39,461 nt of DNA. Origin: Coriobacteriia bacterium. Its GTDB lineage: Bacteria; Actinomycetota; Coriobacteriia; Anaerosomatales; SLCP01. This document shows positions 2 through 34,316 of the stretch, piece by piece. A program made the translations under genes and the position numbers. Below the pieces are notes generated by a model. It was not told the DNA's origin. It saw only the letters and a program-made list of their open reading frames with translations, and searched no databases. Position 1 is the first letter of the stretch; every line of letters begins with the position of its first letter. The stretch covers positions 1-39,461 of the forward strand of contig SKKZ01000143.1 in NCBI GenBank assembly GCA_007123455.1, written 5' to 3'.

Positions 2-3000
2 ATGATGGCGGCAGACGACAGGCCAGGGGGCTGCCGGGCCCGCGCATGGCGACCGGTCCCGGTCGACGCCGACGCGGTCGTAGCGCTTGCGGATGCGACC
101 GGGGTCTCGTCTGTCGTCGCCCGCATCCTCCTCGTTCGCGGGATCTCAACGCCCGAGGAGGTCGAACGCTTTCTCGAGCCGGACCTTGAACGCGACTGGC
201 TGGATCCCGGAGTCATCCCCGGGATGACAGAGGCTGCCGAGCGTGTTGCGACGGCGATCCGCTCGGGAGAGAGAGTCGTCGTTTTCGGAGACTTCGACCT
301 TGACGGCATCTCATCTGCCGCACTCGCCTGCCGTGGTCTGCGGGCCCTCGGGTCGGACGCCGTGGCGACGGTCCCGCATCGGTTCCGTGAGGGCTACGGA
401 CTGACGCCCGCCTCGGTCGAACGCTTGCGGGGGATGGATCCCTCGCTCGTCATCACGGTCGACTGCGGCGTCTCGGCCGGGCTCGAGGTCGCCGAGCTGT
501 TGGAATCAGGCATCGATGTCGTCATCACCGATCATCACGAGCCGGGTGAAGCGGTGCCTGTCGGAGTTCCGGTCGTCGATCCCAAACTCGATCCAGCCTG
601 CCCGTCACGTGACCTCTCCGGGGCCGGAGTGACTTTGAAGCTCGTGCAGGCGGTCGGCGCGCTCCTCGGCAAGAAGAACGAGTGGCGTGAGCTGACCGAT
701 CTGGCGATGCTCGGCACGGTCGCCGACATCGTCCCGCTCTTCGGGGAGAATCGCGCGCTGGTTGCACATGGTCTCGCGCGCATTCGCCGTGCGCCCCGGA
801 CCGGTATCGCAGCGCTCGCTGCGGTCGCTTCGACGAAGCTTCCCGCGGTTGACTCCGACGCGGTTGCGTACCAGCTCGCACCACGGTTCAATGCCGCGGG
901 CCGTATGGCCGACCCGGCGGTTGCGCTCGAACTCCTTATGACCGACGACCCGGTGTCTGCCGATGCGCTTGCCCGCGAACTCGATGCGTACAATCGCACC
1001 AGGCAGACGGTCGAGCAGGACCTCACCGAGGCCGCTCTTGCACTTGCCGAGCGAGAGTTCACCGAGGGCGACCGGGGGATGGTTCTTGCGGGTGACGGTT
1101 GGCACGAGGGCGTGAAAGGAATAGTCGCTTCACGTCTGACCCAGCGCTTCGGTGTGCCGGCCGTGCTGCTTGCCATCGAGGACGGTGAGGCCAGGGGTTC
1201 CGGTCGCTCGGTCGGCACTGTCGACCTCTACAACGCGGTTTCCTCGACCTCCGACCTTCTCGTGCGTTTTGGAGGCCATGCTGCCGCTGTCGGGCTCACC
1301 CTCGATCCCGCGCGTATTGCCGAGTTCCGCGAGCGGTTCCTTCGCCACCTGGCCGATCTTCCCGCCGAACAGTTCGCGAGCGAACGTCAGGTCGATGCGG
1401 AGATCGACCTTGGCGAGGTGGGCCTGGACCTTGCGGCTGAGATCGCCGCACTCGAACCGTTCGGTTCAGGGAATCCGCGACCGCTCTTCAGCGTCGGGGG
1501 CGTCTTCATGTCCGGTCGTGAGCGCGTCGGTGCGACCTCCAATCATCTCCGGTTTGCGGCATACGACGGTGCCGACTCGGTGCAGGCGATCGCGTTTCGC
1601 TGTCCCGACATCGAACGTCTCGCACTTTGCGATGCCGCAGTAGACCTTGCATTCGAGGTGCAGGCCGACGAGTGGCGGGGTCGCAGGCGTGTCCAGATGC
1701 TCGTTCGTGAGGTCGCCGTCCACGAGCACGAGGGATACTCGCCCGCTGCCGAACTCGTCGAGGACCTGTTCGCGCGTGCCGATGAGATCCTCGCCCGTGA
1801 GGAGTATGCGGGCATCGAGGAGGCGGAGTCATTTCACACCAAGCTTGCGGGAGTGACGTTCGAAGGACGTCAGGACCTTGTTGCCCGTCTGGAGCCGGGG
1901 ACGCCTCTGAGAGTGGTTCGTCAGCCGGACAACCCCCACGACGCGAACGCGATCGCTTTGCACGAGGCGCACGGTGGGCAGGTCGGCTTCTTCAACAGAC
2001 GCCTTGCCGGTGCACTCGCGCCGGTGATCGATGCCGGCGTGGAATACGACGTGGAGGTCTCCGATGTGACCGGAGGCGATGCGGGCAGGCCCTACGGGGT
2101 CAACGTGCTGGTGACCCGGCGACCGGATGCCAATGACATCTCGGACGAAGAGACTCGTACGGTGCGCCGTGAGCAGCTGGCATCGCTGGACTCTTCCACG
2201 CTCGAACGCGAGCTCGTGCGCGAGTTCATCGGAGATGGAGTGTTGCACGATGCGCAGCAGCGGGCCCTGGATGAGTTGGCCCGCGGGCATCGCTGCCTGA
2301 CGGTGATGGCGACCGGTCGGGGCAAGTCGCTCATCTTCCACCTGCATGCGGCCCGGACTGCGCTGCAGGGTGGAGGAGCTTCAGTGTTCGTGTTCCCGCT
2401 CCGCGCACTCGTCGCAGACCAGGCATTTCATCTCGAAGAGGTGATGGCGAGGATCGGCGTGGGCGTCTGCACTCTGACCGGTGAGTCAGCACCGGGCGTG
2501 CGTGACGATGCGTTCGCCGCTCTTGGCGACGGTAGGATCGACATCATGTTGACAACGCCTGAGTTCCTCGCGTTTCACGCGGAGCGTTTCGCGGAGGCCG
2601 GGCGTGTTCGTTTCGCCGTCGTTGACGAGGCGCATCACGTGGGAACCGCCCGTGCCGGGCACAGGCCGGCCTACGCGCGTCTCGGCGAGACGTTCGAGGC
2701 CCTCGGTGGTCCGGCCGTGCTTGCGGTCACAGCGACCGCCGGGGACGCGACGGCACGGGCGATCGTCGACTCGCTCGGCATCACCTCGGTGGTCACCGAT
2801 CCGACGGTGCGCGAGAACCTCGTGGTCGAGGATCGGCGCGGCCTGTCAGACAAAGACGCATATCTCGCATCACTCGCCGCGGGGGGCGAGAAACTGATCG
2901 TGTACGTCAACTCACGCGAGCAATCGGTCCGTCTCGCCAGGATGCTGCGGAAGAAGGCACCGGCCATCGCGATGCGGGTGGCCTTTTACAACGGGGGACT

Positions 3001-3646
3001 GACCCGTTCCGCCCGCCATGCCGTCGAGCGTGCCTTCCGTGCCGGAGAGGTTAGCGTGGTCGTTGCGACGAGCGCATTCGGCGAGGGAGTGAACATCCCT
3101 GATGTCCGCCACGTCGTCCTCTACCACCTACCCTTCAACGACATCGAGTTCAACCAGATGTGCGGCCGTTCGGGTCGTGACGGGGCGCTTGCGCGCATCC
3201 ACTTGTTGTTTGGGAAGCGGGACGGCAAAGTGAACGAAATGGTGCTCGCCAGTGTCGCGCCTGCACGCGATGACCTGGCAGCACTCTACCTGGTGCTCAA
3301 AGAGTTGCAGCAGTCAAGTGGCCCGGGCTTTGAGATCACTAACGCAGAGCTCGCCGAACGGGTCGGGGCGCGCCGTGCGACGTCGACAATGAACGAGCGC
3401 GGGGTGTCCGCCGGCTTGGGCGTGTTCAGAGAGCTGGATCTGTTGGAGGGCGAGGGGCATGGGGCGTACCGCCGGCTGACGGTACCGCTATCGGCCGGGA
3501 AGGTCGAGCTGGCGTCCTCGGTCCGCTACGCAGAGGGTCTCGAGGAGATAGCCGAGTTCGAGGCGTTCCGCGAGTGGGTCCTCTCTGCTACGTCCGATGA
3601 GTTGCTTGCCCGGTTCAACCGCCCTATCCTTCCATCACAAGACTGA
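2..3646 (+). CDS. recJ: RecJ-type DHH/DHHA1 ssDNA exonuclease fused to a HIRAN domain and a RecQ-family SF2 helicase (1214 aa; 5' end abuts the window edge, so the start is uncertain)
   Basis: The N-terminal part has RecJ hallmarks: FGDFDLDGISS, the DHH motif ITDHHEP (DHH codons 530-538) and a DHHA1-like GGHAAAVGL. The middle part (about 1835-2125) is a near-textbook HIRAN signature: LAGVTFEGRQDLV..PGTPLRVVRQPDNPHDANAIAL..GGQVGFFNRRLAGALAPVIDAG. The C-terminal part carries helicase motifs: MATGRGKSLIF (about 2309-2329), DEAHHVGTARAGHRPAY (DEAH at 2624-2638, resembling RecQ DEAHC..GHDFRP), VTATA and QMCGRSGRDG. It is one uninterrupted ORF. Confidence 0.9.
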   Translation: MMAADDRPGGCRARAWRPVPVDADAVVALADATGVSSVVARILLVRGISTPEEVERFLEPDLERDWLDPGVIPGMTEAAERVATAIRSGERVVVFGDFDLDGISSAALACRGLRALGSDAVATVPHRFREGYGLTPASVERLRGMDPSLVITVDCGVSAGLEVAELLESGIDVVITDHHEPGEAVPVGVPVVDPKLDPACPSRDLSGAGVTLKLVQAVGALLGKKNEWRELTDLAMLGTVADIVPLFGENRALVAHGLARIRRAPRTGIAALAAVASTKLPAVDSDAVAYQLAPRFNAAGRMADPAVALELLMTDDPVSADALARELDAYNRTRQTVEQDLTEAALALAEREFTEGDRGMVLAGDGWHEGVKGIVASRLTQRFGVPAVLLAIEDGEARGSGRSVGTVDLYNAVSSTSDLLVRFGGHAAAVGLTLDPARIAEFRERFLRHLADLPAEQFASERQVDAEIDLGEVGLDLAAEIAALEPFGSGNPRPLFSVGGVFMSGRERVGATSNHLRFAAYDGADSVQAIAFRCPDIERLALCDAAVDLAFEVQADEWRGRRRVQMLVREVAVHEHEGYSPAAELVEDLFARADEILAREEYAGIEEAESFHTKLAGVTFEGRQDLVARLEPGTPLRVVRQPDNPHDANAIALHEAHGGQVGFFNRRLAGALAPVIDAGVEYDVEVSDVTGGDAGRPYGVNVLVTRRPDANDISDEETRTVRREQLASLDSSTLERELVREFIGDGVLHDAQQRALDELARGHRCLTVMATGRGKSLIFHLHAARTALQGGGASVFVFPLRALVADQAFHLEEVMARIGVGVCTLTGESAPGVRDDAFAALGDGRIDIMLTTPEFLAFHAERFAEAGRVRFAVVDEAHHVGTARAGHRPAYARLGETFEALGGPAVLAVTATAGDATARAIVDSLGITSVVTDPTVRENLVVEDRRGLSDKDAYLASLAAGGEKLIVYVNSREQSVRLARMLRKKAPAIAMRVAFYNGGLTRSARHAVERAFRAGEVSVVVATSAFGEGVNIPDVRHVVLYHLPFNDIEFNQMCGRSGRDGALARIHLLFGKRDGKVNEMVLASVAPARDDLAALYLVLKELQQSSGPGFEITNAELAERVGARRATSTMNERGVSAGLGVFRELDLLEGEGHGAYRRLTVPLSAGKVELASSVRYAEGLEEIAEFEAFREWVLSATSDELLARFNRPILPSQD

Positions 3647-3662
3647 GGCGAGGAGAGCGCGC

Positions 3663-5882
3663 GTGCCGGCAACCATCGAACAGATCGAGGCGCAGGTCCG
3701 GGAGTACAATCCCGACGCCGACCTCACCGGGCTCGACGACGCCTATCACTTCGCCTTCGAGGCTCACGTGGGTCAGTCACGCAAGTCCGGCGAGCCGTTC
3801 GTCAAACATCCCATAGAGGTCTGCCTCATCCTCGCCGAGTTGCATCTCGACACGGCCACTCTCAAGGCCGCCCTTCTCCACGATGTTGTGGAGGATTCGA
3901 AGCACGATCTGTCCGAGGTCCGCGAGCGCTTCGGTGACGAGGTCGCCGAGCTCGTCGACGGGGTGACCAAGCTCGGCCGCATCGAGTTCGAGACGCTTTC
4001 CGAGGCCCAGAGCCAGAACCTGCGAAAGATGCTTATAGCGATGGCCAAGGACATTCGCGTGATCCTCATCAAGCTCGCTGACCGGCTCCACAATATGCGG
4101 ACCCTGTCGGCGTTGCCGGCGGAGCGCAGGCGTGACAAAGCTGTCGAGACCATGGAGATCTACGCCCCGCTTGCGCACCGACTCGGCATCTCCAGCATCA
4201 AGTGGGAGCTCGAGGACCTGGCATTCTACTACCTCGAGCCGCGCAAGTTCCACCAGGTGCAGAAGATGGTCGCCGAGAGCCGGGCCGCGCGCGAGGCGTA
4301 CCTGCGCCAGGTGATCGACCAGCTGCAGGGCGAGCTACGCGAGGTCGGCGTCGAGGCCGAGATTTCAGGGCGCCCGAAGCATCTGTACAGCATCTACCAG
4401 AAGATGTCGCACAAAGGTAAGGACTTCAACGAGATCTACGATCTCATCGCCTTGCGGGTGATCGTGGACTCGGTCAAGGACGTCTACGGGGCGCTCGGCA
4501 CGGTGCATAGCATCTGGAAGCCTGTGCCCGGACGCTTCAAGGACTACGTTGCGATGCCCAAGTTCAACATGTACCAGTCACTCCATACGACGGTCATAGG
4601 GCCCGCGGGCCGGCCGCTGGAGATACAGATCCGGACCGAAGAGATGCATCGCACCGCCGAGTACGGGATTGCCGCGCACTGGCGGTACAAGGAGGGTGGC
4701 CGCGGCGACGAGAGCTTCGACGAGCGGCTCGCCTGGCTCCGTCAGATGCTCGAGTGGCAGACCGAACTCAAGGACCCGCGTGAGTTCATGGAGGCACTCA
4801 AGATCGACCTCTTCGAAGACGAGGTATTCGTCTTCACGCCCAAAGGCGACGTACGTTCGATGCGGCGCGGCTCCACGCCGATCGACTTCGCCTATGCGAT
4901 CCACACCGAGGTCGGACATCACTGTGTGGGCGCGAAGGTGAACGGGGTCATCGTGCCTCTCAGTTACGAGTTGCAGATGGGCGACCGGGTCGAGATCCTG
5001 ACCAACAAGAACTCACGGCCGAGTCGTGACTGGCTCAACATCGTCAAGACTTCCTCGGCTCGCAGCAAGATTCGCAACTTCTTCAGCAAGGTGAGCCGCG
5101 AAGACGATCTGCAGCGCGGGCGCGATGAGCTCGTCAAGGTCATGCGCAAGCACGGACTCGGTGTGAGCTCTCCGGCCGCGACCCGGGCGCTCGACGCCAT
5201 TGCCACGGAGATGAACTTCCAGGAGTCCGAGGATCTTCTCGCGCACATCGGCTCTGGGAAGGTGTCCGCCAAGCAGATCGCCGGCAAGCTTCTCAAGCTC
5301 ATGGCTGCAGCGGAGCCGAAGACTGCACCGGAGCCGGAGCCTGAGACGCTGCCGCTCACCACACCGATGACCGCACCGCGTTCAAAGCGGCGGCGCCAGG
5401 GTGGCGGCGTGAAGGTGAAAGGTATCGACGACGTGCTCGTCCGCCTCGCTCGATGCTGCAATCCGGTGCCCGGTGACGACATCGTGGGATTCGTCACGCG
5501 TGGACGCGGTGTGTCCGTGCATCGCCGAGACTGCGCGAACGCAGCGGACTTGCTGCGCTCTCCGGAGCGCATCATCGATGTCGAGTGGGACAAGGGCACC
5601 GAAACCACCTATCAGGTCGAGATCGTCATCGAGGCTGTCGACCGGATGCGTCTGCTCCAGGAGGTCTCCTCGACGATGGCCGAGGCCGGTGTGAACATTC
5701 TGTCGGCCCACGTCGCGACCGACCGCGGTGGCATCTCCACGATGCGCTTCCTCTTCGAGCTCGGTAACATGGACCAGCTTCAATCGGTCATACGTGAGGT
5801 ACGCTCCATCGACGGCGTCTTCGAGGTCGCCAGGGCGCTTCCCGGTGAGGCTGGTCCCCGGCGCAAGCAGGGGCGCGCATGA
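3663..5882 (+). CDS. relA: Bifunctional (p)ppGpp synthetase/hydrolase, RelA/SpoT (Rel) family
   Basis: HD hydrolase motif ALLHDVVEDS; synthetase core RPKHLYSIYQKM..YDLIALRVIV; TGS segment VFVFTPKGDV..GDRVEILT; C-terminal ACT-like segment. I chose the GTG at 3663 because the AGGAGA Shine-Dalgarno lies about 8 nt upstream. The track start at 3597 would overlap the recJ end. Confidence 0.95.
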   Translation: MPATIEQIEAQVREYNPDADLTGLDDAYHFAFEAHVGQSRKSGEPFVKHPIEVCLILAELHLDTATLKAALLHDVVEDSKHDLSEVRERFGDEVAELVDGVTKLGRIEFETLSEAQSQNLRKMLIAMAKDIRVILIKLADRLHNMRTLSALPAERRRDKAVETMEIYAPLAHRLGISSIKWELEDLAFYYLEPRKFHQVQKMVAESRAAREAYLRQVIDQLQGELREVGVEAEISGRPKHLYSIYQKMSHKGKDFNEIYDLIALRVIVDSVKDVYGALGTVHSIWKPVPGRFKDYVAMPKFNMYQSLHTTVIGPAGRPLEIQIRTEEMHRTAEYGIAAHWRYKEGGRGDESFDERLAWLRQMLEWQTELKDPREFMEALKIDLFEDEVFVFTPKGDVRSMRRGSTPIDFAYAIHTEVGHHCVGAKVNGVIVPLSYELQMGDRVEILTNKNSRPSRDWLNIVKTSSARSKIRNFFSKVSREDDLQRGRDELVKVMRKHGLGVSSPAATRALDAIATEMNFQESEDLLAHIGSGKVSAKQIAGKLLKLMAAAEPKTAPEPEPETLPLTTPMTAPRSKRRRQGGGVKVKGIDDVLVRLARCCNPVPGDDIVGFVTRGRGVSVHRRDCANAADLLRSPERIIDVEWDKGTETTYQVEIVIEAVDRMRLLQEVSSTMAEAGVNILSAHVATDRGGISTMRFLFELGNMDQLQSVIREVRSIDGVFEVARALPGEAGPRRKQGRA

Positions 5883-6648: not shown

Positions 6649-7920
6649 ATGAACGCACGCGCGCCGAAAGGCACGTCCGACCTGCTCCCTGCCACTGCGC
6701 GTGCCTGGGAGCATCTGACGCGTACCGCACAGGAGATGTTCGCCAGATACGGCTACGAGCCGGTTTACACACCGCTCTTCGAGCACACCGAGGTGTTCAC
6801 GCGGGGGATCGGCGAGGCCACCGACATCGTGAGCAAAGAGATGTACACGTTCGAGGACCGCTCCGGTCGAAGCCTGACATTGCGACCCGAAGGAACGGCA
6901 AGCGTCGTGCGCTCGGCGCTCGAGCACAGCCTCGTGCCGCAGGGTTCATCGATCAAGCTCTACTATGCGGGCCCCATGTTCCGCTACGAGCGCCCGCAGA
7001 AGGGCCGCATGCGCCAGTTCTGGCAGATCGGTATCGAGATTCTCGGCGCTGCCGAGCCGAGCGCCGACGCGGAGGTTATCGTTGCGCTCTGGCGCTTCTA
7101 CGAGGCTGTCGGCATCCCCGTCACCAACATGCGACTGCTCGTGAATTCGATGGGCGACGAGGCGTGCCGCCCCGTCTACCGCGACAAGGTCGCGGGCTAC
7201 ATCCGTGCCCACGCCGCCGGGCTCTGCGACGAGTGTAATCGTCGTCTGGACACCAACCCGCTGCGCGCGTTCGACTGCAAGAATCCCGCGTGCGTCGTCG
7301 TGATGGCCGAGGCACCACTATTGCGTGACGAACTCTGCGGGCCGTGCGCGGCTCACTACGCCGAGGTCAAGGCACGGCTCGACGAACTCGGAATCCCCTA
7401 CACGGAGGAGCCGAAGCTCGTACGCGGTCTTGACTACTACACGCGCACGGTCTTCGAGGTTCAGGCGGACGCGGGCCTGGGCTCTCAGAACGCGATCGGT
7501 GGCGGCGGCAGGTACGATCGGCTCATGGAGGCGTACGGCGGTAAGCCGACGCCGGGTCTCGGGTGGGCGCTCGGTTTCGAGCGCACGCTGTTGGCGATGG
7601 AAGCCGCCGGCGCCGTCGTGCCGGCACCTCCGCTTGCCGAGGTATACGTTGCCCGTGTCGATACGCAGGTCGCCCCCGAGGCGTTTGTTGCTGCGAGTGA
7701 GCTGCGCGATGCGGGAATCGCGGCGGAGCTCGATCACCTCGGCCGATCGCTCAAGGCTCAGTTCAAGCAGGCCGACAGGCTCGGGGCCCGCCTGGTTGTG
7801 GTCGTGGGGCCCGACGAACTCGCACAGGGTGAGGTCACCGTGCGGGACATGGCAACGAAGGAAGAAACACGCGTCGCGCTCGCCGGTGTGGCGAACGCGG
7901 TGCGCCGGTTGCTCGGCTAG
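6649..7920 (+). CDS. hisS: Histidine--tRNA ligase
   Basis: APKGTSDLLP near the N-terminus, class II motif GPMFRYERPQKGRMRQFWQIG, and a C-terminal anticodon-binding region. Start is ATG 6649; the alternative is GTG 6634. Confidence 0.95.
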   Translation: MNARAPKGTSDLLPATARAWEHLTRTAQEMFARYGYEPVYTPLFEHTEVFTRGIGEATDIVSKEMYTFEDRSGRSLTLRPEGTASVVRSALEHSLVPQGSSIKLYYAGPMFRYERPQKGRMRQFWQIGIEILGAAEPSADAEVIVALWRFYEAVGIPVTNMRLLVNSMGDEACRPVYRDKVAGYIRAHAAGLCDECNRRLDTNPLRAFDCKNPACVVVMAEAPLLRDELCGPCAAHYAEVKARLDELGIPYTEEPKLVRGLDYYTRTVFEVQADAGLGSQNAIGGGGRYDRLMEAYGGKPTPGLGWALGFERTLLAMEAAGAVVPAPPLAEVYVARVDTQVAPEAFVAASELRDAGIAAELDHLGRSLKAQFKQADRLGARLVVVVGPDELAQGEVTVRDMATKEETRVALAGVANAVRRLLG

Positions 7921-7933
7921 GAAGGCGGCGCGC

Positions 7934-9700
7934 ATGCTCGACGCACGACACTCCATCAGGACCCATACGTGTGGCGCACTGGGCGCACCCGATATCGGTG
8001 CAAACGTCACGCTCGCCGGCTGGGTGCATCGCCGCCGCGATCACGGTGGCCTCATCTTCGTTGACTTGAGGGACCGCTCAGGCATCGTCCAGTGCACGTT
8101 CGGTCCCGAGGTTGCCGAGGCGTTTGCCACCGCTGAACGGTTGCGTCCCGAATGGGTTGTGGAGCTGGTGGGCGAGGTCCGCCGCCGTCCCGAGGGGACC
8201 GAGAACCCCGAGATGGTCACCGGGGAGGTCGAGGTCGAGGTCTCATCGGTCACCGTCCTCAACAACGCTGAGACGCCTCCTTTCGAGGTCGAGGACGGCA
8301 TCGATACTGACGAGACGACCCGCCTGCGCTATCGCTACATCGACATCCGGCGCCCGGAGATGCTCGGTGCGCTGCTGTTACGCGATCGCGTCACACAGCG
8401 TTTTCGACGCGCGCTTGAAGACCGCGGCTTCATCGAGGTTGAGACCCCGATCCTTACGAAGTCCACACCCGAGGGCGCGCGCGACTTCATCGTCCCGAGC
8501 AGGATGAACGCGGGCAAGTTCTACGCGCTCCCGCAATCGCCACAACTCTTCAAGCAGCTCCTCATGGTCGCCGGGATGGACCGGTACTACCAGATCGCAC
8601 GGTGCTTCCGCGATGAGGACCTGCGCGCCGACCGTCAGCCGGAGTTCACCCAGGTCGACATCGAGATGTCATTCTGCACGCAAGACCACGTCCTCGACTT
8701 GATGGAAGAGGTGATGGCCGAAGTGATGGACGGTGTCGGGGTCGAGTGGCCATCCGAGATCGAGCGTATGACATACGCCGATGCCATGGACCGCTACGGT
8801 TCCGATCGTCCGGACACGCGGTTCGGGATGGAGATCGCGTGCCTCGGCTCGGTCTTCTCCTCATCGGAGTTCAAGGTGTTCGCCGGTGCCCTTGCATCGG
8901 GTGGGCGGATCAAGGGCATCAATGCGACGGGTTGCGGCGGGTGGAGCCGGGGTAAGATCGACGCCCTCAACCAGCTCGCGATCGACTCCGGGGCCAAAGG
9001 CCTTGCCTGGGTGGCGTTCGGAAGCGATGGCGAGGTGCGCTCACCGGTAGCGAAGTTCTTCTCGGAGGCCGAGATGGACGGCTTGCGTGAGGCGCTCGCG
9101 TTGGAGCCGGGAGATCTCGCTTTGATCGTTGCCGACCAGCACGACGTCGCCAACGAGGTCCTCGGTGTGCTGCGTACCGAACTCGCTGAGACACTCGGCC
9201 TGCATGCAGACGGGTTGCACCCCCTGTGGGTCGTCGACTTTCCGCTCCTCAAATGGGACGCTGATGAAGATCGGTGGACGGCTGTGCACCACCCGTTCAC
9301 CCGGCCGTTCGACGAGCACCTCGAACAGCTGGAGGAGGATCCGGGCAGCGCACTCTCGTTCTCGTACGACCTCGTGATCAACGGTCTGGAGATCGGGGGC
9401 GGTACGCTCCGTGTTCACGATCGGGCACTGCAAGAACGCTTGCTCCGAGTCATGGGCATAGGCGCGGAAGAAGCCGCTGACAAGTTCGGGTTCCTGCTCG
9501 ATGCGCTCTCCCATGGTGCTCCGCCGCATGGCGGCATCGCGCTCGGCTTCGACCGGCTGGTGATGATTCTTGGAGGCGGGAAGTCCATCAGAGATGTGAT
9601 CGCATTTCCCAAGACCAGTTCAGGTGCGTGCCCACTTACCGGTGCTCCGGACACGGTTTCCGCACGACAACTCAAGGAAGTGCACGTTTCGGCCGACTAA
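7934..9700 (+). CDS. aspS: Aspartate--tRNA ligase (bacterial type with GAD insertion)
   Basis: RTHTCG..GWVHRRRDHGGLIFVDLRDRSGIVQ (OB fold) and QSPQLFKQLLMVAGMDRYYQIARCFRDEDLRADRQPEFTQVD. The ATG at 7934 follows GAAGG. The 203-codon upstream extension in the track overlaps hisS and is Arg/Ser-rich junk. Confidence 0.95.
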   Translation: MLDARHSIRTHTCGALGAPDIGANVTLAGWVHRRRDHGGLIFVDLRDRSGIVQCTFGPEVAEAFATAERLRPEWVVELVGEVRRRPEGTENPEMVTGEVEVEVSSVTVLNNAETPPFEVEDGIDTDETTRLRYRYIDIRRPEMLGALLLRDRVTQRFRRALEDRGFIEVETPILTKSTPEGARDFIVPSRMNAGKFYALPQSPQLFKQLLMVAGMDRYYQIARCFRDEDLRADRQPEFTQVDIEMSFCTQDHVLDLMEEVMAEVMDGVGVEWPSEIERMTYADAMDRYGSDRPDTRFGMEIACLGSVFSSSEFKVFAGALASGGRIKGINATGCGGWSRGKIDALNQLAIDSGAKGLAWVAFGSDGEVRSPVAKFFSEAEMDGLREALALEPGDLALIVADQHDVANEVLGVLRTELAETLGLHADGLHPLWVVDFPLLKWDADEDRWTAVHHPFTRPFDEHLEQLEEDPGSALSFSYDLVINGLEIGGGTLRVHDRALQERLLRVMGIGAEEAADKFGFLLDALSHGAPPHGGIALGFDRLVMILGGGKSIRDVIAFPKTSSGACPLTGAPDTVSARQLKEVHVSAD

Positions 9701-9930: not shown

Positions 9931-9959
9931 CGTTCGGCGCCTGAGTGGAGGAAGAGAGC

Positions 9960-10547
9960 ATGCGCAGAACAGTCGCAGTACTCATCGTGGCACTACTCGC
10001 ACTCACCCTCGTTGCATGCGGCGGAGGCCCGGCCGACGACCCGGTGACGACTCCGGATATCGACGCCGCCGCACCACCTCCTCCTCCCGAGGAAGAAGCA
10101 CCTGACCTGTCACCCACCGAGGAGCAGGTCTACGAGCCGTTCCCGGTCGACCCCGAGATCGGTGTTCCTGATGCGATTCAGAGCCGTCTCGATTCGGGAC
10201 AGCCCATGATCATCGTGTTCGTCGATGACTCCCAGAAGACCACCGACGACCAGGAAGAGATCATCCGTGGCGTGACGGAAACGTATCGCGGACTTATCGA
10301 CGTGCTCTCGTTCAACCTGGGCGCGTACGTCAGCCAGGACTCGAAAGGTACGATCACCGTCAAGCCCGAGCTGACCGATGACGAGACCGCGAAACAGGTG
10401 ACCCGTCTCATAAGTCAAGACTATCTGGATGTTCGGTTCACTCCGTTTATCCTGATCGTCGACGACCAGGGCTACGTCACCTGGCGTCACCGTGGCATCT
10501 CCGACGACAAGACGCTCGAGCGCGAGGTGCTCCGGGTCACGGAGTAG
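9960..10547 (+). CDS. Putative lipoprotein, possibly thioredoxin-fold-like but without a CxxC motif
   Basis: Signal peptide plus lipobox: MRRTVAVLIVALLALTLVAC|GGG. The ATG at 9960 follows GGAGGAAGAGAG. Function is not recognisable. Confidence 0.8.
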   Translation: MRRTVAVLIVALLALTLVACGGGPADDPVTTPDIDAAAPPPPPEEEAPDLSPTEEQVYEPFPVDPEIGVPDAIQSRLDSGQPMIIVFVDDSQKTTDDQEEIIRGVTETYRGLIDVLSFNLGAYVSQDSKGTITVKPELTDDETAKQVTRLISQDYLDVRFTPFILIVDDQGYVTWRHRGISDDKTLEREVLRVTE

Positions 10548-13539: not shown

Positions 13540-14772
13540 GTGTCGGAGCGCCTGACCGAGGACCGCATCGAGAGCTGGCGCAGGCTTGCCACCATCAGCT
13601 GGGCGCTCGTGGGGCTCGGGCTCCTCATCATCGCCGGTTTCTGGATACTGGCGCGTGTCTGGGGCGCATTGATGCCGTTCGTGATCTCTCTCATCGTAGT
13701 GTTTGTGCTGCGTCGGCCGGTTAACCGCTTCGAGAAACTCGGTCTGTCCCGTTCTCTATCGGTGGTCCTGTGCTATCTGATCACCGCTGTGGCGCTGGCC
13801 GTGTTCGGGTTGTTTGTCATACCTCCCGTAGTGCGAGAGTTCCGCGACTTCGCCAACGACTTCCCGCGTCACTACGACGCCGCACTCGGCTTGTGGGACC
13901 AGATCGAGAGCGAGTATCTTGCAATCGAGTTCCCCGACTGGGTGCGTGAGGCAGCCGAGGCTGCACGGCAGAACATCATGTCGGGGTTGACCGCCGCATC
14001 ACGCAATATCGCCCAGGCTGTGCTTAACGTAGGCGGTCAGATCGTCGGCTTCTTCCTGAGCCTGTTCCTCGCTTTCGCGCTTGCGTTCTTCGTCCTTCGT
14101 GACCTGCCGACGCTGAAGTCCGAGATTCTCGCGCTGCCGGGTCCCGCACGGCGGGAAGAGTCCTTTAAGCTTGCTGCCGACGTGACCGATGTTCTTGAAG
14201 GCTTCATCCGCGGTCAGAGCTTCATCGCGCTCATCGTTGGCGTGATGACCGCACTTGGCCTGTGGTTGCTCGGAGTGCCGTACGCACTTGTCATCGGACT
14301 TATCGCGGGTGTCACCAACCTCATCCCGTATCTCGGCCCGGTGGTAGGTGGTGCGGTCGCCGCTATCTCCGCGGCGTTCGTGAGTCCGATCCTCGTCGTC
14401 TGGACCATCCTGTACATCATCCTGATACAGCAGGTGGAGTCCTTGTTCCTCCAGCCCCGCATCATGTCCGGACAGGTTCACCTGCATCCCGTGCTCGTGA
14501 TACTCTCGTTGCTCGTCGGCGCGACGCTGTTCGGGCTGATCGGGATGCTCTTCGCGGTTCCGGTGGCCGGTGTGGTCAAGGTCATGTTCGTGCACTACTA
14601 CGAGAAGTGGACCGCGTCGACTATCGCTGCCGAGAACGGTGCGTTGTTCCGCAAGCCGAGGCGTCGCGGATCGCGAAAGGACGATGAGTGTCCTCCTCCG
14701 CGCACCGACGGCGCAGAAGCCCCCGGAGACGTTTCGGGGAGCGGGCCGGCGAAGGAAGACGGAACACCATAA
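13540..14772 (+). CDS. AI-2E family transporter (UPF0118/PerM-like permease)
   Basis: Multiple TM segments and the family-typical GVTNLIPYLGPVVGG segment. The GTG at 13540 lies 9 nt after AGGGAG; the alternative is GTG 13531. Confidence 0.88.
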   Translation: MSERLTEDRIESWRRLATISWALVGLGLLIIAGFWILARVWGALMPFVISLIVVFVLRRPVNRFEKLGLSRSLSVVLCYLITAVALAVFGLFVIPPVVREFRDFANDFPRHYDAALGLWDQIESEYLAIEFPDWVREAAEAARQNIMSGLTAASRNIAQAVLNVGGQIVGFFLSLFLAFALAFFVLRDLPTLKSEILALPGPARREESFKLAADVTDVLEGFIRGQSFIALIVGVMTALGLWLLGVPYALVIGLIAGVTNLIPYLGPVVGGAVAAISAAFVSPILVVWTILYIILIQQVESLFLQPRIMSGQVHLHPVLVILSLLVGATLFGLIGMLFAVPVAGVVKVMFVHYYEKWTASTIAAENGALFRKPRRRGSRKDDECPPPRTDGAEAPGDVSGSGPAKEDGTP

Positions 14773-14782
14773 GGAGATCCGC

Positions 14783-17416
14783 GTGAACTCAGCCGAGATC
14801 AGGGAGAGTTTTCTCTCGTACTTCGAGACGAAAGGCTCACGGAGAGTGTCGAGCTCCTCGCTCGTGCCCGACGACCCGTCCCTCCTGCTCACCTCCGCGG
14901 GGATGGTGCAGTTCAAGCCGGTCTTTCTCGGCGTCAAAGACCTCGGCTTCATGCGTGCCACGACGTGCCAGAAGTGCGTGCGCACCACCGATATCGACAT
15001 CATCGGCACCACCAACCGCCATCACAGCTTCTTCGAGATGCTCGGCAACTTTAGCTTCGGCGACTATTTCAAGAGCGAAGCGTGCGCGTGGGCACAGGAG
15101 TACTCGGTCGAGATGCTCGGGCTCGACCCCGACCGGCTGTGGTACTCGATCTACGAGGACGACGATGAGGCCGAGCGTATCTGGGCCGAGGAGGTCGGCG
15201 TCCCGCGCGAGCGCATCGTGCGAATGGGCGCGAAGGACAACTTCTGGTCGGCTGGACCGACCGGTCCGTGCGGGCCGTGCTCGGAGCTCTATTACGACCA
15301 GGGCGAGAGCGTGGGCTGCGGTCTCGACTCGTGTGCGCCCGGATGTGAATGCGACCGTTTCCTCGAGTACTGGAACCTCGTCTTCATGCAGTTCGACCGT
15401 GCCGAGGACGGTACGCTCACCCCGCTGCCCAACCAGAGTATCGATACCGGCATGGGCCTCGAGCGCGTTGCCGCGATACTCCAGGGAGTGAGATCGAACT
15501 TCGAGACCGACATCCTGCGCTCGATCATGGCGCGGGCCGAGGAGCTTACGGGTGTTGCATACGGGTCTTCGGAGAAGATCGACACCTCGCTCAGGATCGT
15601 CACCGATCATACGCGGGCCGTCACGTTCCTCGTCGCCGACGGGGTTCTTCCCTCCAACGAAGGTCGGGGCTACGTTTTGCGGCGCATTCTGCGCCGTGCC
15701 GTACGCCACGGGCGCCTGCTCGGCAGGACCGAGCCGTTCATGGCCGAGATGGTGGATCGCGTCGTCGAACTCATGGGCGCGGCCTATCCTGAGATCGCCG
15801 AACACCACGACCTCGTGCGGCGGATCGCCGACTCCGAGGAGCAGCGGTTCAGCACGACCCTGCGTCAAGGGCTCGCCTTTCTCGACGAGGAGATCTCGAG
15901 GCTCAAGGAGGCCGGCTCGCCCGTTCTCGACGGGCGCACGGCCTTCGCGTTGCACGATACCTTCGGGTTCCCCCTGGAGCTGACGGCTGAGATTGTCGCC
16001 GAGGCGGGTCTCGACGTGGAACTGGACGTATTCGAGGCCGAGATGGCAGCCCAACGGGAGCGCGCCCGCGCCGCCGTCAAGGACGAGTCGTGGACATCGT
16101 TCGCGAACGCCTTCAACGAGATCGCCACGCGAGCGGGGCAGACCGACTTCGTCGGTTACGAGCGTGACGACGCGACCGCAACGGTCATCGGACTGGTGAC
16201 CGGGGGGGCATCGGTTGAAGAGATCGCCGCCGGGACCGCCGCGGAGGTCGTGCTCGATCGCACTCCGTTCTATGCCGAGCAGGGGGGGCAAGTCGGCGAC
16301 CAGGGAGTCCTATCCAGCGAGCGTGGCGACGTTTTCGAGGTCACGGACACCACCCTTCCCGTGTCAGGTGTGATCTCGCACCGGGGCACCCTCACCTCGG
16401 GCACCCTGCGGCTTGGCGATACCGTGTCGGCGGATATCGACGTCATGCGTCGCGAGCGTATCCGTCGCAATCACACCGCTACCCACCTGCTGCACTGGGC
16501 ACTCAGGTTGGTGCTCGGCGATCACGTGCGCCAGTCCGGCTCGCACGTGGCCCCGGACAGGCTCCGCTTCGACTTCACGCATTTCGAGGCCCCGGGTGCA
16601 GACCAGCTCGACAAGATCGAGCGGATGGTCAACGCCAAGATCATGGAGAACCATCCGGTCCGCAGCTACGAGACTTCGCTCACGTCTGCGAAGGAGGCCG
16701 GAGTCACCGCACTGTTCGGTGAGAAGTACGGCGAATTCGTGCGCGTGCTCGAGACCGGCAACTTCAGCAAGGAGTTGTGCGGGGGGACTCACGTCGCCAG
16801 AACCACGGAGATCGGCCTCGTGAAGATTGCGTCGGAGGGTAGCGTCGGTGCCAACCTGCGGCGCATCGAGGCGGTCACCTCATTCGATGCGCTCGAGTAC
16901 GTCGAGCGCGAAGAAGCCGAACTCGCCGAGGCCGCTGCTGTGTTGAAGGTACAACGGTTCGATGTCTCCGAGCGTGTCGGCACTCTCGTCAAGCGCGTCA
17001 AGGAGCTCGAGTCGGCCAAGGAGCGCGTGAAGGAGAACCTTTCAGCGCAGAGCATCGATGCACTGCTGGCCGAAGCGTTCGATGTCGGCTATCAGTTGGT
17101 GATAACGCGCGTGCCTGACACGGATGCCGGGGGCTTGCGTGGCATCGCCGACGTCATGCGTGCGCGCATGGGCGGAGGAGCTGTGGTACTCGCGACGGTC
17201 GCCCCTGACGGCGGAGCGCCACTACTGCTTGCCGCCGGCTCCGATGACGCCGTCGCTGCCGGGTTCGACGCAGGTGCGGTCATCAAGGCGGTCGCGCCCC
17301 ACGTCAAAGGCGGGGGAGGCGGCAAGCCCGCGATGGCACAGGCCGGCGGGAAAGATGCCTCAGGTGTCGACGCAGCCCTGGCGGCCGCCCGCGACATGCT
17401 CGGCACACCGGAGTAG
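14783..17416 (+). CDS. alaS: Alanine--tRNA ligase
   Basis: IRESFLSYFE..GS, SAGMVQFKP, HHSFFEMLGNFSFGDYFK, editing-domain HTATHLLHWAL and a C-terminal DHHA1-like GGGGGKP. The GTG at 14783 follows AAGGAG. The track's upstream extension overlaps the transporter gene. Confidence 0.95.
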   Translation: MNSAEIRESFLSYFETKGSRRVSSSSLVPDDPSLLLTSAGMVQFKPVFLGVKDLGFMRATTCQKCVRTTDIDIIGTTNRHHSFFEMLGNFSFGDYFKSEACAWAQEYSVEMLGLDPDRLWYSIYEDDDEAERIWAEEVGVPRERIVRMGAKDNFWSAGPTGPCGPCSELYYDQGESVGCGLDSCAPGCECDRFLEYWNLVFMQFDRAEDGTLTPLPNQSIDTGMGLERVAAILQGVRSNFETDILRSIMARAEELTGVAYGSSEKIDTSLRIVTDHTRAVTFLVADGVLPSNEGRGYVLRRILRRAVRHGRLLGRTEPFMAEMVDRVVELMGAAYPEIAEHHDLVRRIADSEEQRFSTTLRQGLAFLDEEISRLKEAGSPVLDGRTAFALHDTFGFPLELTAEIVAEAGLDVELDVFEAEMAAQRERARAAVKDESWTSFANAFNEIATRAGQTDFVGYERDDATATVIGLVTGGASVEEIAAGTAAEVVLDRTPFYAEQGGQVGDQGVLSSERGDVFEVTDTTLPVSGVISHRGTLTSGTLRLGDTVSADIDVMRRERIRRNHTATHLLHWALRLVLGDHVRQSGSHVAPDRLRFDFTHFEAPGADQLDKIERMVNAKIMENHPVRSYETSLTSAKEAGVTALFGEKYGEFVRVLETGNFSKELCGGTHVARTTEIGLVKIASEGSVGANLRRIEAVTSFDALEYVEREEAELAEAAAVLKVQRFDVSERVGTLVKRVKELESAKERVKENLSAQSIDALLAEAFDVGYQLVITRVPDTDAGGLRGIADVMRARMGGGAVVLATVAPDGGAPLLLAAGSDDAVAAGFDAGAVIKAVAPHVKGGGGGKPAMAQAGGKDASGVDAALAAARDMLGTPE

Positions 17417-17418
17417 TC

Positions 17419-17835
17419 ATGAGGGTGCTCGCTCTCGACATCGGGGAGCGACGGGTGGGCGTCGCGATCTCGGACCCCGGGGCTACGATAGCCTCTCCGC
17501 TCGACGTCCTCGATGCAACGGGCCGACTTGCCGAGCAGGTCGCGGCTCTCGTGGTCGATCGGGAGGTGGAACTCGTCGTGGTGGGGCTTCCTCTGACGCT
17601 GCGTGGCGAAGAGGGGCCGCAGGCTGCACGGGTGCGTGCAGCAGCCGAACGAATCGCGGAGCGTATCTCCGTGCCTATCGTCTATCATGATGAGCGACTG
17701 TCCAGTGCGGAAGCGAATCGGTCGATGAAGGGTTCGTCATCCGTGCGCAAGCGGCGCGGCAGTGTCGACAAGGTCGCTGCCGCCATCTTCCTGCAGTCGT
17801 TCCTGGACGGCGGCGGGGCACGTTCATCCGAGTGA
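17419..17835 (+). CDS. ruvX: Holliday junction resolvase-like protein RuvX (YqgF)
   Basis: VLALDIGERRVGVAISD N-terminus, 138 aa, in the canonical position after alaS. Confidence 0.93.
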   Translation: MRVLALDIGERRVGVAISDPGATIASPLDVLDATGRLAEQVAALVVDREVELVVVGLPLTLRGEEGPQAARVRAAAERIAERISVPIVYHDERLSSAEANRSMKGSSSVRKRRGSVDKVAAAIFLQSFLDGGGARSSE

Positions 17836-19906: not shown

Positions 19907-20634
19907 ACCGTGTCTTCGCAGTCGCCCGGGCCGTTGTGTCCGACGCCATCAGGCGCCGGCTCGTATGGATCGTGGTCCTCTTCTCGCTCGTGCTCGCCGC
20001 GAGCATCCCGATGCTGCCAAGCTACGGCGTGGGTGTCGCCGAGGCCGTCTACAGGGAGATCGCGCTCGCGATGACCTATGTCGCCGCGATGGTGGTCACG
20101 CTGGTGCTCTCGGTGGCACGGATTCCCGGTGAGGTCGAGCGCCGCACCGTATACAGCGTGCTCGCCCGTGACGTCAGACGGTGGGAGTACGTGCTCGGCA
20201 CGTGGCTCGGCATCGTGCTCACCCTCGGCGCCGCTACACTTGCGTTCGGCGCCATCATCTTCGGGGTGGGCTGGGTCATGTACGGGGAGCCCATGTGGCT
20301 GCTCTGGCAGGGCGTTGCGGCGATATGGATGGAAGCGGGAATCATCGCCGCGCTGTGCGTGGCGGTCTCCACCGTCACACTTCCCGTGATCGTTGCGATC
20401 GCAGCCCTTGCGTTTCTCTTCATCGCGCACGTGCGGGCGGACCTGCTGGGTGGCCCTCAGAACCCGCTCTGGCACGTCTATCCGTCACTCGATGCGTTCA
20501 ACATCATCGCCCCCGTGGCCCACGGCTCGGGTGTCTCTCTGATGTATCTCGCGACGATGACGGCGGTCTTCGCGGCCTGGGTCGCCATGCTCACACTGCT
20601 TGGCGCGCTCGGGTTCTCGCGGAGGGACCTGTGA
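19903..20634 (+). CDS. ABC-2 family transporter permease
   Basis: The ATG overlaps the ATPase stop (ATGA). It has about 6 hydrophobic segments. The upstream part of the 19735 track ORF overlaps the ATPase gene. Confidence 0.8.
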   Translation: MNRVFAVARAVVSDAIRRRLVWIVVLFSLVLAASIPMLPSYGVGVAEAVYREIALAMTYVAAMVVTLVLSVARIPGEVERRTVYSVLARDVRRWEYVLGTWLGIVLTLGAATLAFGAIIFGVGWVMYGEPMWLLWQGVAAIWMEAGIIAALCVAVSTVTLPVIVAIAALAFLFIAHVRADLLGGPQNPLWHVYPSLDAFNIIAPVAHGSGVSLMYLATMTAVFAAWVAMLTLLGALGFSRRDL

Positions 20635-21299
20635 TGGACTCGCTGGTGCGCTCGCGTACACTCGCACTACTGTTGGTCGTCGCCTTGTTCAGTCTGGCCC
20701 TGATCGGTCAGGCGAGTGCCGACCAGCTCGTGCCGGTCACCGAGCGGACCGGCACCGGACAGGCGATCGAGCGCGCGGGGTTCGCGTACCTGACGGGCGT
20801 GCGCACGTATGGTGCCGCGGTGCTATGGAATCGGCTCGACCCGCTGTTCCACGACTACTATGAAGATCTCCCGCTTGAAGAGCAGACCTACATGATGCCG
20901 ACAATCAACATGGCCATCCTCCTGGACCCGCAGTTCACCCAGCCCTACTATGTCGCCGCATGGGTGCTGGCCCGCCGTGGGCAGGTCGATGAGGGTGTCG
21001 CGCTCGCCGCGCGGGGGGTAGAGAACAACCCGCAATCGGGATTGATGCGTGTTAACCATGCCCAGCTCCTCGTCATCTTCCGCGAGGACGAGGACGCGGC
21101 AGTGGCTCAGGCAGAGGCGGCGCTTGCCGATGACATCGTCTGGGCGAACCTTGTCGAGCAGTACGAAGGTTATGCAGCGGTCCGGACGATACTGCGCAAC
21201 GCGGGCCGCGAGCAGCAGGCAGCTTTCCTCGATGCCGAACTCGAGCGCATCGATGATGAGATCGACAGGCTCGGCGTCTCAGTCGGCCACAATCACTGA
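20634..21299 (+). CDS. Membrane-anchored or secreted helical-repeat (TPR-like) protein of unknown function
   Basis: The ATG overlaps the permease stop (TGATG). The N-terminus MDSLVRSRTLALLLVVALFSLALIGQASA looks like a signal or anchor sequence. The rest is alpha-helical repeat-like. Confidence 0.7.
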   Translation: MDSLVRSRTLALLLVVALFSLALIGQASADQLVPVTERTGTGQAIERAGFAYLTGVRTYGAAVLWNRLDPLFHDYYEDLPLEEQTYMMPTINMAILLDPQFTQPYYVAAWVLARRGQVDEGVALAARGVENNPQSGLMRVNHAQLLVIFREDEDAAVAQAEAALADDIVWANLVEQYEGYAAVRTILRNAGREQQAAFLDAELERIDDEIDRLGVSVGHNH

Positions 21300-24434: not shown

Positions 24435-24578
24435 ACCGGCGTTTTCCCTGCATAGAGGGGTCTATCGGTTGTGAAGACTGGGGCTTCGTGAGAAACTGAG
24501 AAGAGGTAGCTGTACGTCGCCACGGCTCCTAGCGCGTGGCGTCATGCGTTCCGAGGGGTGAGGGAGGGGGCGTCGTCT

Positions 24579-25205: not shown

Positions 25206-25253
25206 ACATCGAACGGCCACGGATCTTGGCCGAGAAGGGTGCCGACGAGTCGC

Positions 25254-27212: not shown

Positions 27213-27231
27213 CGGAGAACAGGACAGCCGG

Positions 27232-27756: not shown

Positions 27757-27759
27757 ACG

Positions 27760-28215
27760 GTGAACCTTGAGGCCTACGCACCGGCTGTCTCGCTTCTGCT
27801 GCTCGGCGTGATGGCCATCATCGCGTTTGTCCGGGTTCGCTCGCTCATCAAGCGTCACGGCATTGAGGGGCGTGTTCCTACTCAGCAGCCTGTGGCACAC
27901 GCAGAGCCTCCTGCGCCCTGGTGGGCTTCGCATCTCGATGACTACACGAGGGAGTCGTCACCCAAGGCCGCGGTGTCCGAGGAGCGCGTGAGGGCTGAGG
28001 AGCCCCCGACACCGGAGGAGCCTCATGGATCCGCGGAGCTCGAGGAGCACGATGTCACTCCGGACACCGGCGAATACGTGATGCTTGCACAGGTAGAGCT
28101 ATGGTTCGGTGATTATCGGGTGGCGGTGCGTTCGGGCTCGGATACGGACCGCCGATTCCGCCGATTCGCGGAGGTGCTCCTCGAAGATCTTGGCTCCACA
28201 CGCGTGCGGGAGTGA
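27760..28215 (+). CDS. Small single-pass membrane protein of unknown function
   Basis: The GTG lies 3 nt after the GTPase stop. There is an N-terminal TM segment (PAVSLLLLGVMAIIAFV), then a charged linker and a short C-terminal segment. No recognisable family. Confidence 0.6.
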   Translation: MNLEAYAPAVSLLLLGVMAIIAFVRVRSLIKRHGIEGRVPTQQPVAHAEPPAPWWASHLDDYTRESSPKAAVSEERVRAEEPPTPEEPHGSAELEEHDVTPDTGEYVMLAQVELWFGDYRVAVRSGSDTDRRFRRFAEVLLEDLGSTRVRE

Positions 28216-34315: not shown

Positions 34316-34316
34316 G

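Follow-up and report, generated by a model that had tools for sequence, protein, structure and literature searches.

The first gene of the contig analysed here raises the question of whether one bacterial polypeptide can combine the RecJ exonuclease, a HIRAN domain and a RecQ-type helicase, and what such an enzyme would do. The gene lies on contig SKKZ01000143.1 of a Coriobacteriia bacterium, which we studied over its whole stretch of 39,461 nucleotides (hereafter, the window). A preliminary description, made from the letters of this DNA, had read the gene as three joined modules and proposed a Rosetta-stone fusion acting in fork processing or resection. Our analysis confirmed the RecJ–HIRAN–helicase fusion as an observation; the mechanism that we infer from it, with a probability of roughly 60%, is that of a covalent RecQ/RecJ-type enzyme that would resect the 5′ strand at gaps, forks or ends and use HIRAN as a 3′-OH anchor. 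The gene and its parts (aa, amino acid positions) are as follows.

2–3646, forward strand: RecJ–HIRAN–RecQ-like helicase fusion gene, from the open reading frame (ORF), its translation, domain matches and relatives with the same length and domain set
107–1711, forward strand: RecJ 5′-3′ single-stranded DNA (ssDNA) exonuclease module, aa 36–570, from TIGR00644, Pfam and Foldseek
1712–1816, forward strand: helical linker from the RecJ OB fold to HIRAN, aa 571–605, from the alignment consensus and model secondary structure
1817–2131, forward strand: HIRAN domain, aa 606–710, from Pfam PF08797 and matches to the HLTF HIRAN
2132–2236, forward strand: helical linker into the helicase, aa 711–745, from model secondary structure
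2237–3256, forward strand: RecQ-like superfamily 2 (SF2) helicase core, aa 746–1085, from Pfam DEAD and Helicase_C, NCBIfam, PDB, Foldseek and motifs
3257–3643, forward strand: family-specific C-terminal tail, aa 1086–1214, from the translation, model and motif distribution

The ORF runs from an ATG at position 2 to a TGA at 3644–3646, a single continuous frame of 1214 codons without internal stops, as had been described, and its GC content is even throughout (0.64–0.69). The 1214-aa protein contains six independent Pfam domains, each with E ≤ 1e-10 and above its gathering cutoff: DHH (aa 91–239), DHHA1 (360–447), RecJ_OB (464–569), HIRAN (610–680), DEAD (751–915) and Helicase_C (956–1061). 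A frame of this length with six domains is far beyond chance. Together with the NCBIfam matches, this domain scan upholds the three-module reading. Every motif string quoted in the preliminary description is present in the translation, including GVTFEGRQ...RQPDNPHDANAIAL in the HIRAN region; the catalytic motifs of the RecJ and helicase parts are all intact; and the Rosetta-stone idea is consistent with everything testable. A recJ and a helicase gene could also be merged falsely by an assembly join or by an overlooked frameshift or stop codon, and frameshifts do split the gene in three contigs from metagenome-assembled genomes (MAGs; L006, L062 and L069). Against this stand the even composition of the ORF, the occurrence of the same single ~1200-aa ORF in at least 120 clusters from independent assemblies, and its presence as one ORF in isolate genomes of Olsenella porci, Parafannyhessea umbonata, Thermincola potens JR, Selenobaculum gibii and Collinsella aerofaciens. 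The artefact, a worry raised at the outset, is thus refuted at the level of the family, and we give it practically no chance; a local error in the exact window is a separate matter.

The N-terminal half is a bona fide RecJ because it matched the NCBIfam recJ equivalog TIGR00644 end to end and above its cutoff (466.3 versus 396.9 bits, with aa 36–570 covering model positions 2–545 of 546). The DHH, DHHA1 and OB-like regions described earlier were borne out by this match and by Pfam, where RecJ_OB scored 82 bits. The RecJ motifs (GDFDLDG at aa 96–102, VDCG at 153–156, DHH at 177–179 and GGH at 424–426) are invariant in all 150 of the representatives described below that cover them, in every architecture class. 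Furthermore, the Foldseek search of PDB with a model of the RecJ half matched Deinococcus radiodurans RecJ (5f55, E 7e-41) and also 2zxo and 8y30, the matched entries being the RecJ proteins of D. radiodurans, Staphylococcus aureus and Thermus thermophilus. A processive 5′-3′ ssDNA exonuclease activity is predicted from the sequence of this half. The linker that follows (aa 571–605) is kept among close relatives and was modelled with low confidence, its predicted local distance difference test (pLDDT) values being ~50–80.

The locus agrees with the RecJ assignment. Downstream of the fusion gene lie, in order, relA, a metallo-beta-lactamase (MBL)-fold hydrolase, hisS, aspS, rarA/mgsA, a sigma factor, an AI-2E transporter, alaS and mltG. 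The window begins at the fusion gene, and we therefore read the upstream side in a relative, the 2.8-Mb Coriobacteriia chromosome L001, where the order is tgt-yajC-HD-secD-secF-[fusion]-...-relA-hisS. The fusion thus occupies the classical Gram-positive housekeeping recJ slot (secDF–recJ–relA–hisS–aspS), and the canonical position upstream of relA noted in the preliminary description is correct, with relA directly downstream in the window. By equivalog score and locus, the RecJ half is a true orthologue of the Escherichia coli and D. radiodurans RecJ.

The middle segment is a HIRAN domain homologous to that of the eukaryotic fork remodeller HLTF. It scored 41.8 bits against PF08797 (gathering cutoff, 24.7) and matched the solved HLTF HIRAN with phmmer (E 1e-6), and a profile of 16 diverse family members matched HLTF at E 1.2e-12 and, at E 1e-8, 3k2y, the structure of a stand-alone HIRAN from a bacterium. 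The boundaries proposed earlier (nucleotides 1835–2125, aa 612–708) agree with the segment at aa 606–710, which is predicted to fold, like HLTF HIRAN, as six strands with flanking helices. An hhalign comparison with HLTF reached a probability of 98%, the HLTF sequence before V77 in its input being provisional. The NPHD motif at aa 644–647 aligns to HLTF N91-P92-Y93-D94, so that D647 is the equivalent of D94 and H646 that of Y93. D647 is invariant in diverse family alignments; at the Y93 position most members have H, Y or F, and a few have M, V, A or S. An invariant Phe at aa 620 (GVTF) is, by eye only, a candidate for the equivalent of Y72. We know of no function assigned to HIRAN in prokaryotes, and bacterial HIRAN domains were reportedly listed only as stand-alone proteins in the original HIRAN paper of Iyer et al. 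from 2006. In HLTF, the 3′-OH is recognised by D94 and the two terminal bases are pinched by Y72 and Y93; capture of the 3′ end by HIRAN is proposed to initiate template switching when forks stall (PMC5773155, PMC4666394). By analogy, binding of 3′-OH ends is predicted for the HIRAN of the fusion.

The helicase core carries the SF2 motifs 0, I, Ia, II (DExH) and III–VI. These include the Q motif at aa 750–753, a Walker A ATGRGKS at 770–776 (TGRGKS from 771), DEAHH at 875–879, TATA at 910–913 and motif VI QMCGRSGRDG at 1052–1061. NCBIfam, PDB sequence matches and Foldseek all placed the core closest to the RecQ family. For example, the PDB sequence search aligned the core, and only the core, to the RecQ catalytic cores 4tmu (E 6e-34) and 1oyw, followed by RECQL4, WRN, RECQL5 and BLM, and RecQ-family helicases made up all of the top 50 Foldseek matches (50/50) of the C-terminal model. 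The best NCBIfam matches were recQ (159.6 bits) and recQ_fam (TIGR00614, 157.5 bits), both below their cutoffs of 640.2 and 219.8, and their alignments end at model positions 344–348, where the two RecA-like domains end. The protein itself ends 129 residues past the core and has no cysteine in aa 1055–1214. The aromatic-rich loop is modified (VGTARAGHRPAY at aa 880–891, with GHRPAY at aa 886); in the PDB alignment, RecQ from E. coli and Cronobacter sakazakii has DEAHCISQWGHDFRPEY where the window protein has DEAHHVGTARAGHRPAY. We call the helicase RecQ-like rather than RecQ because it scores below the cutoffs, lacks zinc-binding cysteines and RQC or HRDC matches and has an altered aromatic-rich loop. 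The earlier assignment to the RecQ family thus holds for the helicase core, by its motifs and best matches, and fails for the family cutoff, the zinc-binding cysteines and HRDC; RQC gave no match. The family resemblance predicts, by analogy, ATP-dependent 3′-5′ DNA unwinding.

The tail beyond the core is specific to the family and predicted to consist of a helical hairpin, a winged-helix-like helix-helix-strand-strand (H-H-E-E) unit and a long helix. The winged-helix-like tail of the preliminary description is thus plausible from predicted secondary structure; it has no statistical support, and its likeness to RQC is not established. Some Foldseek alignments to RECQ1 and BLM extend over more than 500 columns, but with root-mean-square deviations of 11–19 Å. 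The tail includes two motifs, SSVRYAEG at aa 1175–1182 and a terminal FNRPILP at 1205–1211 (nucleotides 3614–3634). The terminal motif, [IF]N[RQT]P[IVL]xP across the family, was found wherever the helicase motifs are intact, stand-alone forms included, and was missing from all 31 decayed or truncated proteins inspected (31/31), whereas S.RY.EG is kept in all architecture classes. The terminal motif thus tracks helicase integrity while S.RY.EG persists, which suggests that the tail has one role linked to the helicase and another independent of it.

We modelled the protein with AlphaFold2 from an alignment of 33 sequences. The model of aa 15–1214 had a mean pLDDT of 84.6 and a predicted template modelling score (pTM) of 0.68, and that of aa 591–1214 a mean pLDDT of 85.7. 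The folds of the domains are confident in these models.

A word-indexed search of protein clusters returned at least 120 clusters of close relatives at 63–100% identity, all of ~1210 aa and with the same domain set; most are named just “RecJ”, which is how databases annotate the fusion. The closest (84–87% identity) come from MAGs labelled Anaerosomatales or Coriobacteriia. We also searched 1.84 billion representatives exhaustively, with the protein without its first 14 residues as the query, and sorted the best 150 with custom segment hidden Markov models and motif columns into the following classes.

40 of the best 150: RecJ, HIRAN and helicase with all motifs intact, at identities to the window protein down to ~32%
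23 of the best 150: RecJ and helicase without HIRAN
16 of the best 150: full length with Walker A, DEAH and motif VI decayed, and a good HIRAN in 4
34 of the best 150: RecJ and a partial helicase, mostly the second RecA-like domain (RecA2) and tail only, ~830–960 aa
11 of the best 150: plain RecJ
9 of the best 150: stand-alone helicases, with HIRAN in 6
17 of the best 150: fragments

The preliminary description had left open whether the fusion is lineage-wide. Scanning a single genome for each species, we found it in at least 582 species genomes, and the carriers belong to the Coriobacteriia, several classes of Bacillota and, as a MAG, the Armatimonadota. RecJ and helicase share one ORF at all loci with enough DNA, except in the three frameshifted MAG contigs mentioned above. 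The full architecture is carried by O. porci, P. umbonata, Coriobacteriaceae bacterium EMTCatB1, Thermincola ferriacetica, T. potens JR, Selenobaculum (Anaerosinus) gibii and Clostridia MAGs, and the cultured carriers include O. porci, P. umbonata, T. potens and S. gibii. The orthologue in T. potens JR has the accession WP_013120088.1. Decayed forms were found in a Natroniella sp. and in an Armatimonadota MAG. Fusions ~50% identical to the window protein and resembling those of Atopobiaceae and Coriobacteriaceae also appeared on contigs L026, L030 and L063, which bear the labels Acutalibacteraceae, Agathobacter rectalis and Bacteroidaceae (‘cleanbin’ isolates); these contigs are probably mis-binned, and their three labelled taxa should therefore not be counted as carriers.

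The two halves of the fusion have evolved together. Pairwise identities of the RecJ and helicase parts correlate (Pearson r = 0.70), and a rough neighbour-joining tree nests the HIRAN-less and decayed forms among complete ones. This co-variation and nesting point to one old fusion, inherited vertically and followed by repeated losses. Average conservation is higher in the helicase than in the RecJ core (0.44 versus 0.37), and the helicase is therefore under purifying selection. Repeated losses have removed HIRAN, in Collinsella and the Eggerthellaceae among others; because whole lineages lost it, we consider it an accessory to a core unit of RecJ and helicase.

Reduced and rearranged relatives accompany the complete form. 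Pseudo-helicase relatives of ~1070–1200 aa keep the RecJ motifs and tail and sometimes HIRAN (P0181, P0185, P0190, P0191, P0199, P0206, P0208, P0209, P0212, P0215, P0216, P0220, P0225, P0226, P0228 and P0268). The 875-aa RecJ of Pelosinus fermentans (P0232) belongs to the RecA2-plus-tail class, with a Helicase_C domain at aa 622–731 that matches the RecA2 domain of WRN, and ~25 representatives of 830–960 aa resemble it in having only the second RecA-like domain (Helicase_C) and the tail. From their sequences, these RecJs look like truncated relics of a fused helicase, and long C-terminal extensions in RecJs of other Firmicutes may have arisen likewise. In Foldseek, and in phmmer run with the Pelosinus protein, the alignments to S. 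aureus RecJ (8y30) stayed within the RecJ core and gave no evidence that the C-terminal extension of S. aureus RecJ is such a relic. Stand-alone HIRAN–helicase genes are real. One (L082, 632–2533) encodes HIRAN, helicase and tail directly after secF, in a recJ slot without the RecJ part. Another (L084, 265–2193) has its own ribosome-binding site on an AT-rich contig, beside a DnaD_N-like gene and small helix-turn-helix (HTH) genes, surroundings that look like a mobile element or phage-like small genes. The 1848-aa P0170 contains two or more complete RecJ cores one after the other (three DHH, three RecJ_OB and two DHHA1 stretches), besides a weak Toprim-like match, and could be either a genuine tandem fusion or an assembly error.

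What, then, would the fusion do? Domain identities, intact motifs, confident folds, the housekeeping locus and the long co-inheritance of the two halves form the observed basis for an answer; the polarity of the helicase, the coupling of unwinding to degradation, the binding of 3′-OH by HIRAN and the choice of substrate are predictions drawn from the respective families. RecJ requires a 5′ ssDNA tail (PMC4846377). On its own it resects 5′ overhangs, and RecQ, a 3′-5′ helicase, is needed at blunt or 3′-tailed ends (Morimatsu and Kowalczykowski, 2014, as summarised in PMC4846377). In the resection enzyme that we favour, the organism's housekeeping RecJ would be permanently joined to HIRAN and an ATP-driven RecQ-like helicase, and this single-chain helicase-nuclease would do alone what RecQ and RecJ do jointly in the RecF(OR) pathway. 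The helicase would track 3′→5′ on the template strand of a gap or stalled fork, or on the 3′-ended strand of a break, and displace the complementary 5′-ended strand, which would be threaded into the hole of RecJ and degraded 5′→3′. The two motors would thus travel the same way along the DNA, widening a 3′-tailed or gapped stretch of ssDNA for RecA loading. A gap or stalled fork would be widened from its 5′ side, with degradation of the nascent lagging strand, while a break would acquire a 3′ tail. The free 3′-OH, offered by the primer terminus at gaps and forks and by the 3′ tail at breaks, would be bound by HIRAN, which would so target or anchor the enzyme and may also shield the 3′ end.

Several findings weigh against this resection model. 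The shortfall of the helicase against the RecQ-family cutoff counts among them, as does its aromatic-rich loop, which is kept in part: HRPxY is conserved in the family, and the Trp and Phe are not. No RecQ_Zn_bind, RQC or HRDC domain was matched by Pfam in the fusion protein (RQC at E ≤ 0.01), and the polarity and substrate preference of RecQ are therefore not simply transferable to a helicase without a match to these modules. In the HIRAN domain, a His (H646) replaces the Y93 of HLTF, and the equivalent of Y72 could not be placed because phmmer, hmmsearch and hhalign aligned the central HIRAN block only. The occurrence of the HIRAN-less form in whole lineages (C. aerofaciens and the Eggerthellaceae) makes HIRAN dispensable. 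Furthermore, the helicase motifs are decayed in at least 16 representative clusters, which indicates that helicase activity is not indispensable to every carrier.

The most serious competitor overlaps with resection and takes the main reaction to be the branch migration or reversal of forks, as in HLTF. HIRAN would capture the nascent leading strand by its 3′ end, the RecQ-like motor would regress or restore the fork and RecJ would trim the extruded or nascent lagging strand. The RecQ-family helicases BLM, WRN and RECQ1 can remodel forks, which counts in favour of this scheme, as do the homology of the HIRAN domain to that of HLTF and the role proposed for HLTF 3′-end binding in opening template switching at stalled forks (PMC5773155, PMC4666394). 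The motor is, however, RecQ-like and not an SNF2 or RecG-type translocase of double-stranded DNA, no fork-recognition wedge was detected in the fusion protein, and the many active fusions without HIRAN argue that fork capture through this domain is not the core function. We consider fork remodelling as the main reaction unlikely, though it retains some weight. We regard as distinctly improbable that HIRAN and the helicase are mere DNA-binding or regulatory appendages of an ordinary RecJ, without ATP-driven unwinding. Relatives with decayed motifs, or with RecA2 and tail only, still keep the appendage and the S.RY.EG motif, which shows that a non-catalytic role exists within the family; but all ATPase and helicase motifs are intact in the window protein and in 63 representative clusters, conservation is higher in the helicase than in the RecJ core, and helicase integrity is mirrored by the terminal N[RQT]PIxP.

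A role in anti-phage defence or on mobile elements was suggested by PADLOC matches of the helicase core to DpdF (186 bits) and PsyrT (173 bits) and by the stand-alone HIRAN-helicase homologue among small phage-like genes (L084). The PADLOC matches are limited to the generic RecQ-like core and are no better than those to RecQ itself, the fusion occupies a conserved housekeeping slot with no defence partners nearby, and the co-variation of its halves points to vertical inheritance. We therefore rejected membership in a defence system, and a defence or mobile-element role is very unlikely.

The resection model can also be stated more boldly, in a form that we hold to be doubtful and put forward tentatively. 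In this version, Coriobacteriia and several Bacillota would obtain their substrates for RecA loading chiefly from the fusion, which would carry out resection self-sufficiently and independently of Chi. As the RecQ-like motor and RecJ move forward, HIRAN would cap and hold the 3′-OH end, and a protected loop of ssDNA would be spooled out. This would be the first function assigned to a bacterial HIRAN and a prokaryotic counterpart of the 3′-end-guided processing of forks and gaps by HLTF, and the long C-terminal extensions of many Firmicute RecJs would be helicase relics.

Several known systems can be compared with the fusion. RecQ and RecJ of E. coli and D. radiodurans, which act in RecF-pathway resection and the processing of stalled forks, pair the same kind of DHH-family 5′-3′ ssDNA exonuclease with a RecQ-type SF2 motor, and the geometry of co-directional unwinding and 5′-strand degradation would apply directly to the fusion. 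They are, however, separate proteins, whereas the fusion is one polypeptide with HIRAN in between; moreover, its helicase has no zinc-binding cysteines and no match to the RQC and HRDC modules of RecQ, and has a tail of its own. HLTF and Rad5 (HIRAN, SNF2 translocase and RING) share with the fusion a homologous HIRAN, the conserved Asp that contacts the 3′-OH and an SF2 motor in the same chain, a likeness that suggests, by analogy, 3′-end-guided action at forks or gaps. The fusion differs from them in its RecQ-like rather than SNF2 motor, its lack of RING (Pfam matched neither SNF2 nor RING in the window protein), its attached nuclease, its bacterial origin and the His at the Y93 position. WRN also has an exonuclease fused N-terminally to a RecQ-type helicase, and its helicase core is among the best sequence and fold matches of the fusion helicase. 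Unlike the 3′-5′ DnaQ-like exonuclease of WRN, that of the fusion is of the DHH family and of opposite polarity (5′-3′), and the fusion has no RQC or HRDC match and arose from an independent event. AddAB, RecBCD and Dna2 couple helicase and nuclease in a single end-resection machine, as the fusion would, but they have SF1 motors, PD-(D/E)XK nucleases and Chi regulation, and AddAB and RecBCD have multiple subunits. DpdF and PsyrT share the RecQ-like core and lack RecJ, HIRAN and the housekeeping locus. The nearest published analogue is ExoDinG, the S. aureus DinG with an N-terminal 3′-5′ exonuclease, a bacterial fusion of an exonuclease to an SF2 helicase that also occurs in Coriobacteriales and Bacillota (PMC12345164). 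In contrast to the fusion, ExoDinG combines an XPD/DinG-like 5′-3′ helicase with a DnaQ-like 3′-5′ nuclease and has no HIRAN.

Helicase-nuclease machines and the RecQ/RecJ partnership are thus already well known, and sequences of the fusion have been public for years as RecJ. We found no published description of the RecJ–HIRAN–RecQ-like helicase architecture in a search of the freely accessible literature, and the RecJ structure papers made no mention of it. The fusion is therefore a distinct, widespread and apparently unstudied variant rather than a new type of system. RecQ and RecJ are textbook partners that are not known to bind each other; no direct interaction was found between the D. radiodurans proteins (PMC4846377). 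Their natural fusion in hundreds of species is independent evidence that they act as one unit, and it offers a tractable single-chain model for the coupling of unwinding to 5′-strand degradation. It also provides the first clear functional context for a bacterial HIRAN, in a defined repair setting that makes the idea of an ancient 3′-end sensor in gap and fork processing testable. Furthermore, the loss of HIRAN, the loss of ATPase motifs and the truncation to RecA2 and tail form a natural experiment that shows which parts serve what. The carriers include abundant Coriobacteriia of the human gut (Collinsella, Olsenella and other Atopobiaceae, and Eggerthellaceae), whose recombination toolkit has barely been studied.

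The gene that follows the fusion in the window is the following.

3663–5882, forward strand: relA/spoT-type (p)ppGpp synthetase-hydrolase, from Pfam HD_4, RelA_SpoT, TGS and ACT

The first-ATG ORF of relA (from 3597) overlaps the fusion gene by 50 nucleotides. Orthologue alignments begin at its residue 25, and a GAGGAG ribosome-binding site at 3650–3655 precedes a GTG at 3663, which is therefore the probable start. This GTG lies 16 nucleotides past the stop of the fusion, a spacing that suggests co-transcription. No second RecQ-like gene was found within the 39-kb window. The mechanical ORFs of aspS (7325–9700) and alaS (14570–17416) begin far before their first domains and overlap hisS and the AI-2E transporter, respectively; their true starts are probably further downstream. 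Five ORFs of 151–372 aa (9945–10547, 17124–17690, 20181–21299, 27760–28215 and 37716–38339) had no Pfam match at E ≤ 1e-5, and some of them may not be genes.

Beyond mltG lie an ABC transporter, aroE and a type IV pilus cluster. Within 22758–29982, two PilB-type ATPases (22758–24434 and 28312–29982) flank three genes of the pilus cluster, which encode a Roadblock/LC7 protein (24558–25205), a 657-aa DUF4388 protein (25239–27212) and a small GTPase (27232–27756). The Roadblock/LC7, DUF4388 and GTPase genes make up an MglB/MglA-like module, here within a genome of Coriobacteriia-like character. The remainder of the cluster (30041–38956) comprises PilC (30041–31261), a prepilin peptidase (31881–32699), a pilin with an N-methylation motif (34317–34886), PilM (36582–37715) and PilO (38357–38956), together with two ORFs of ~508 aa (32792–34315 and 34893–36422) that had no Pfam match.

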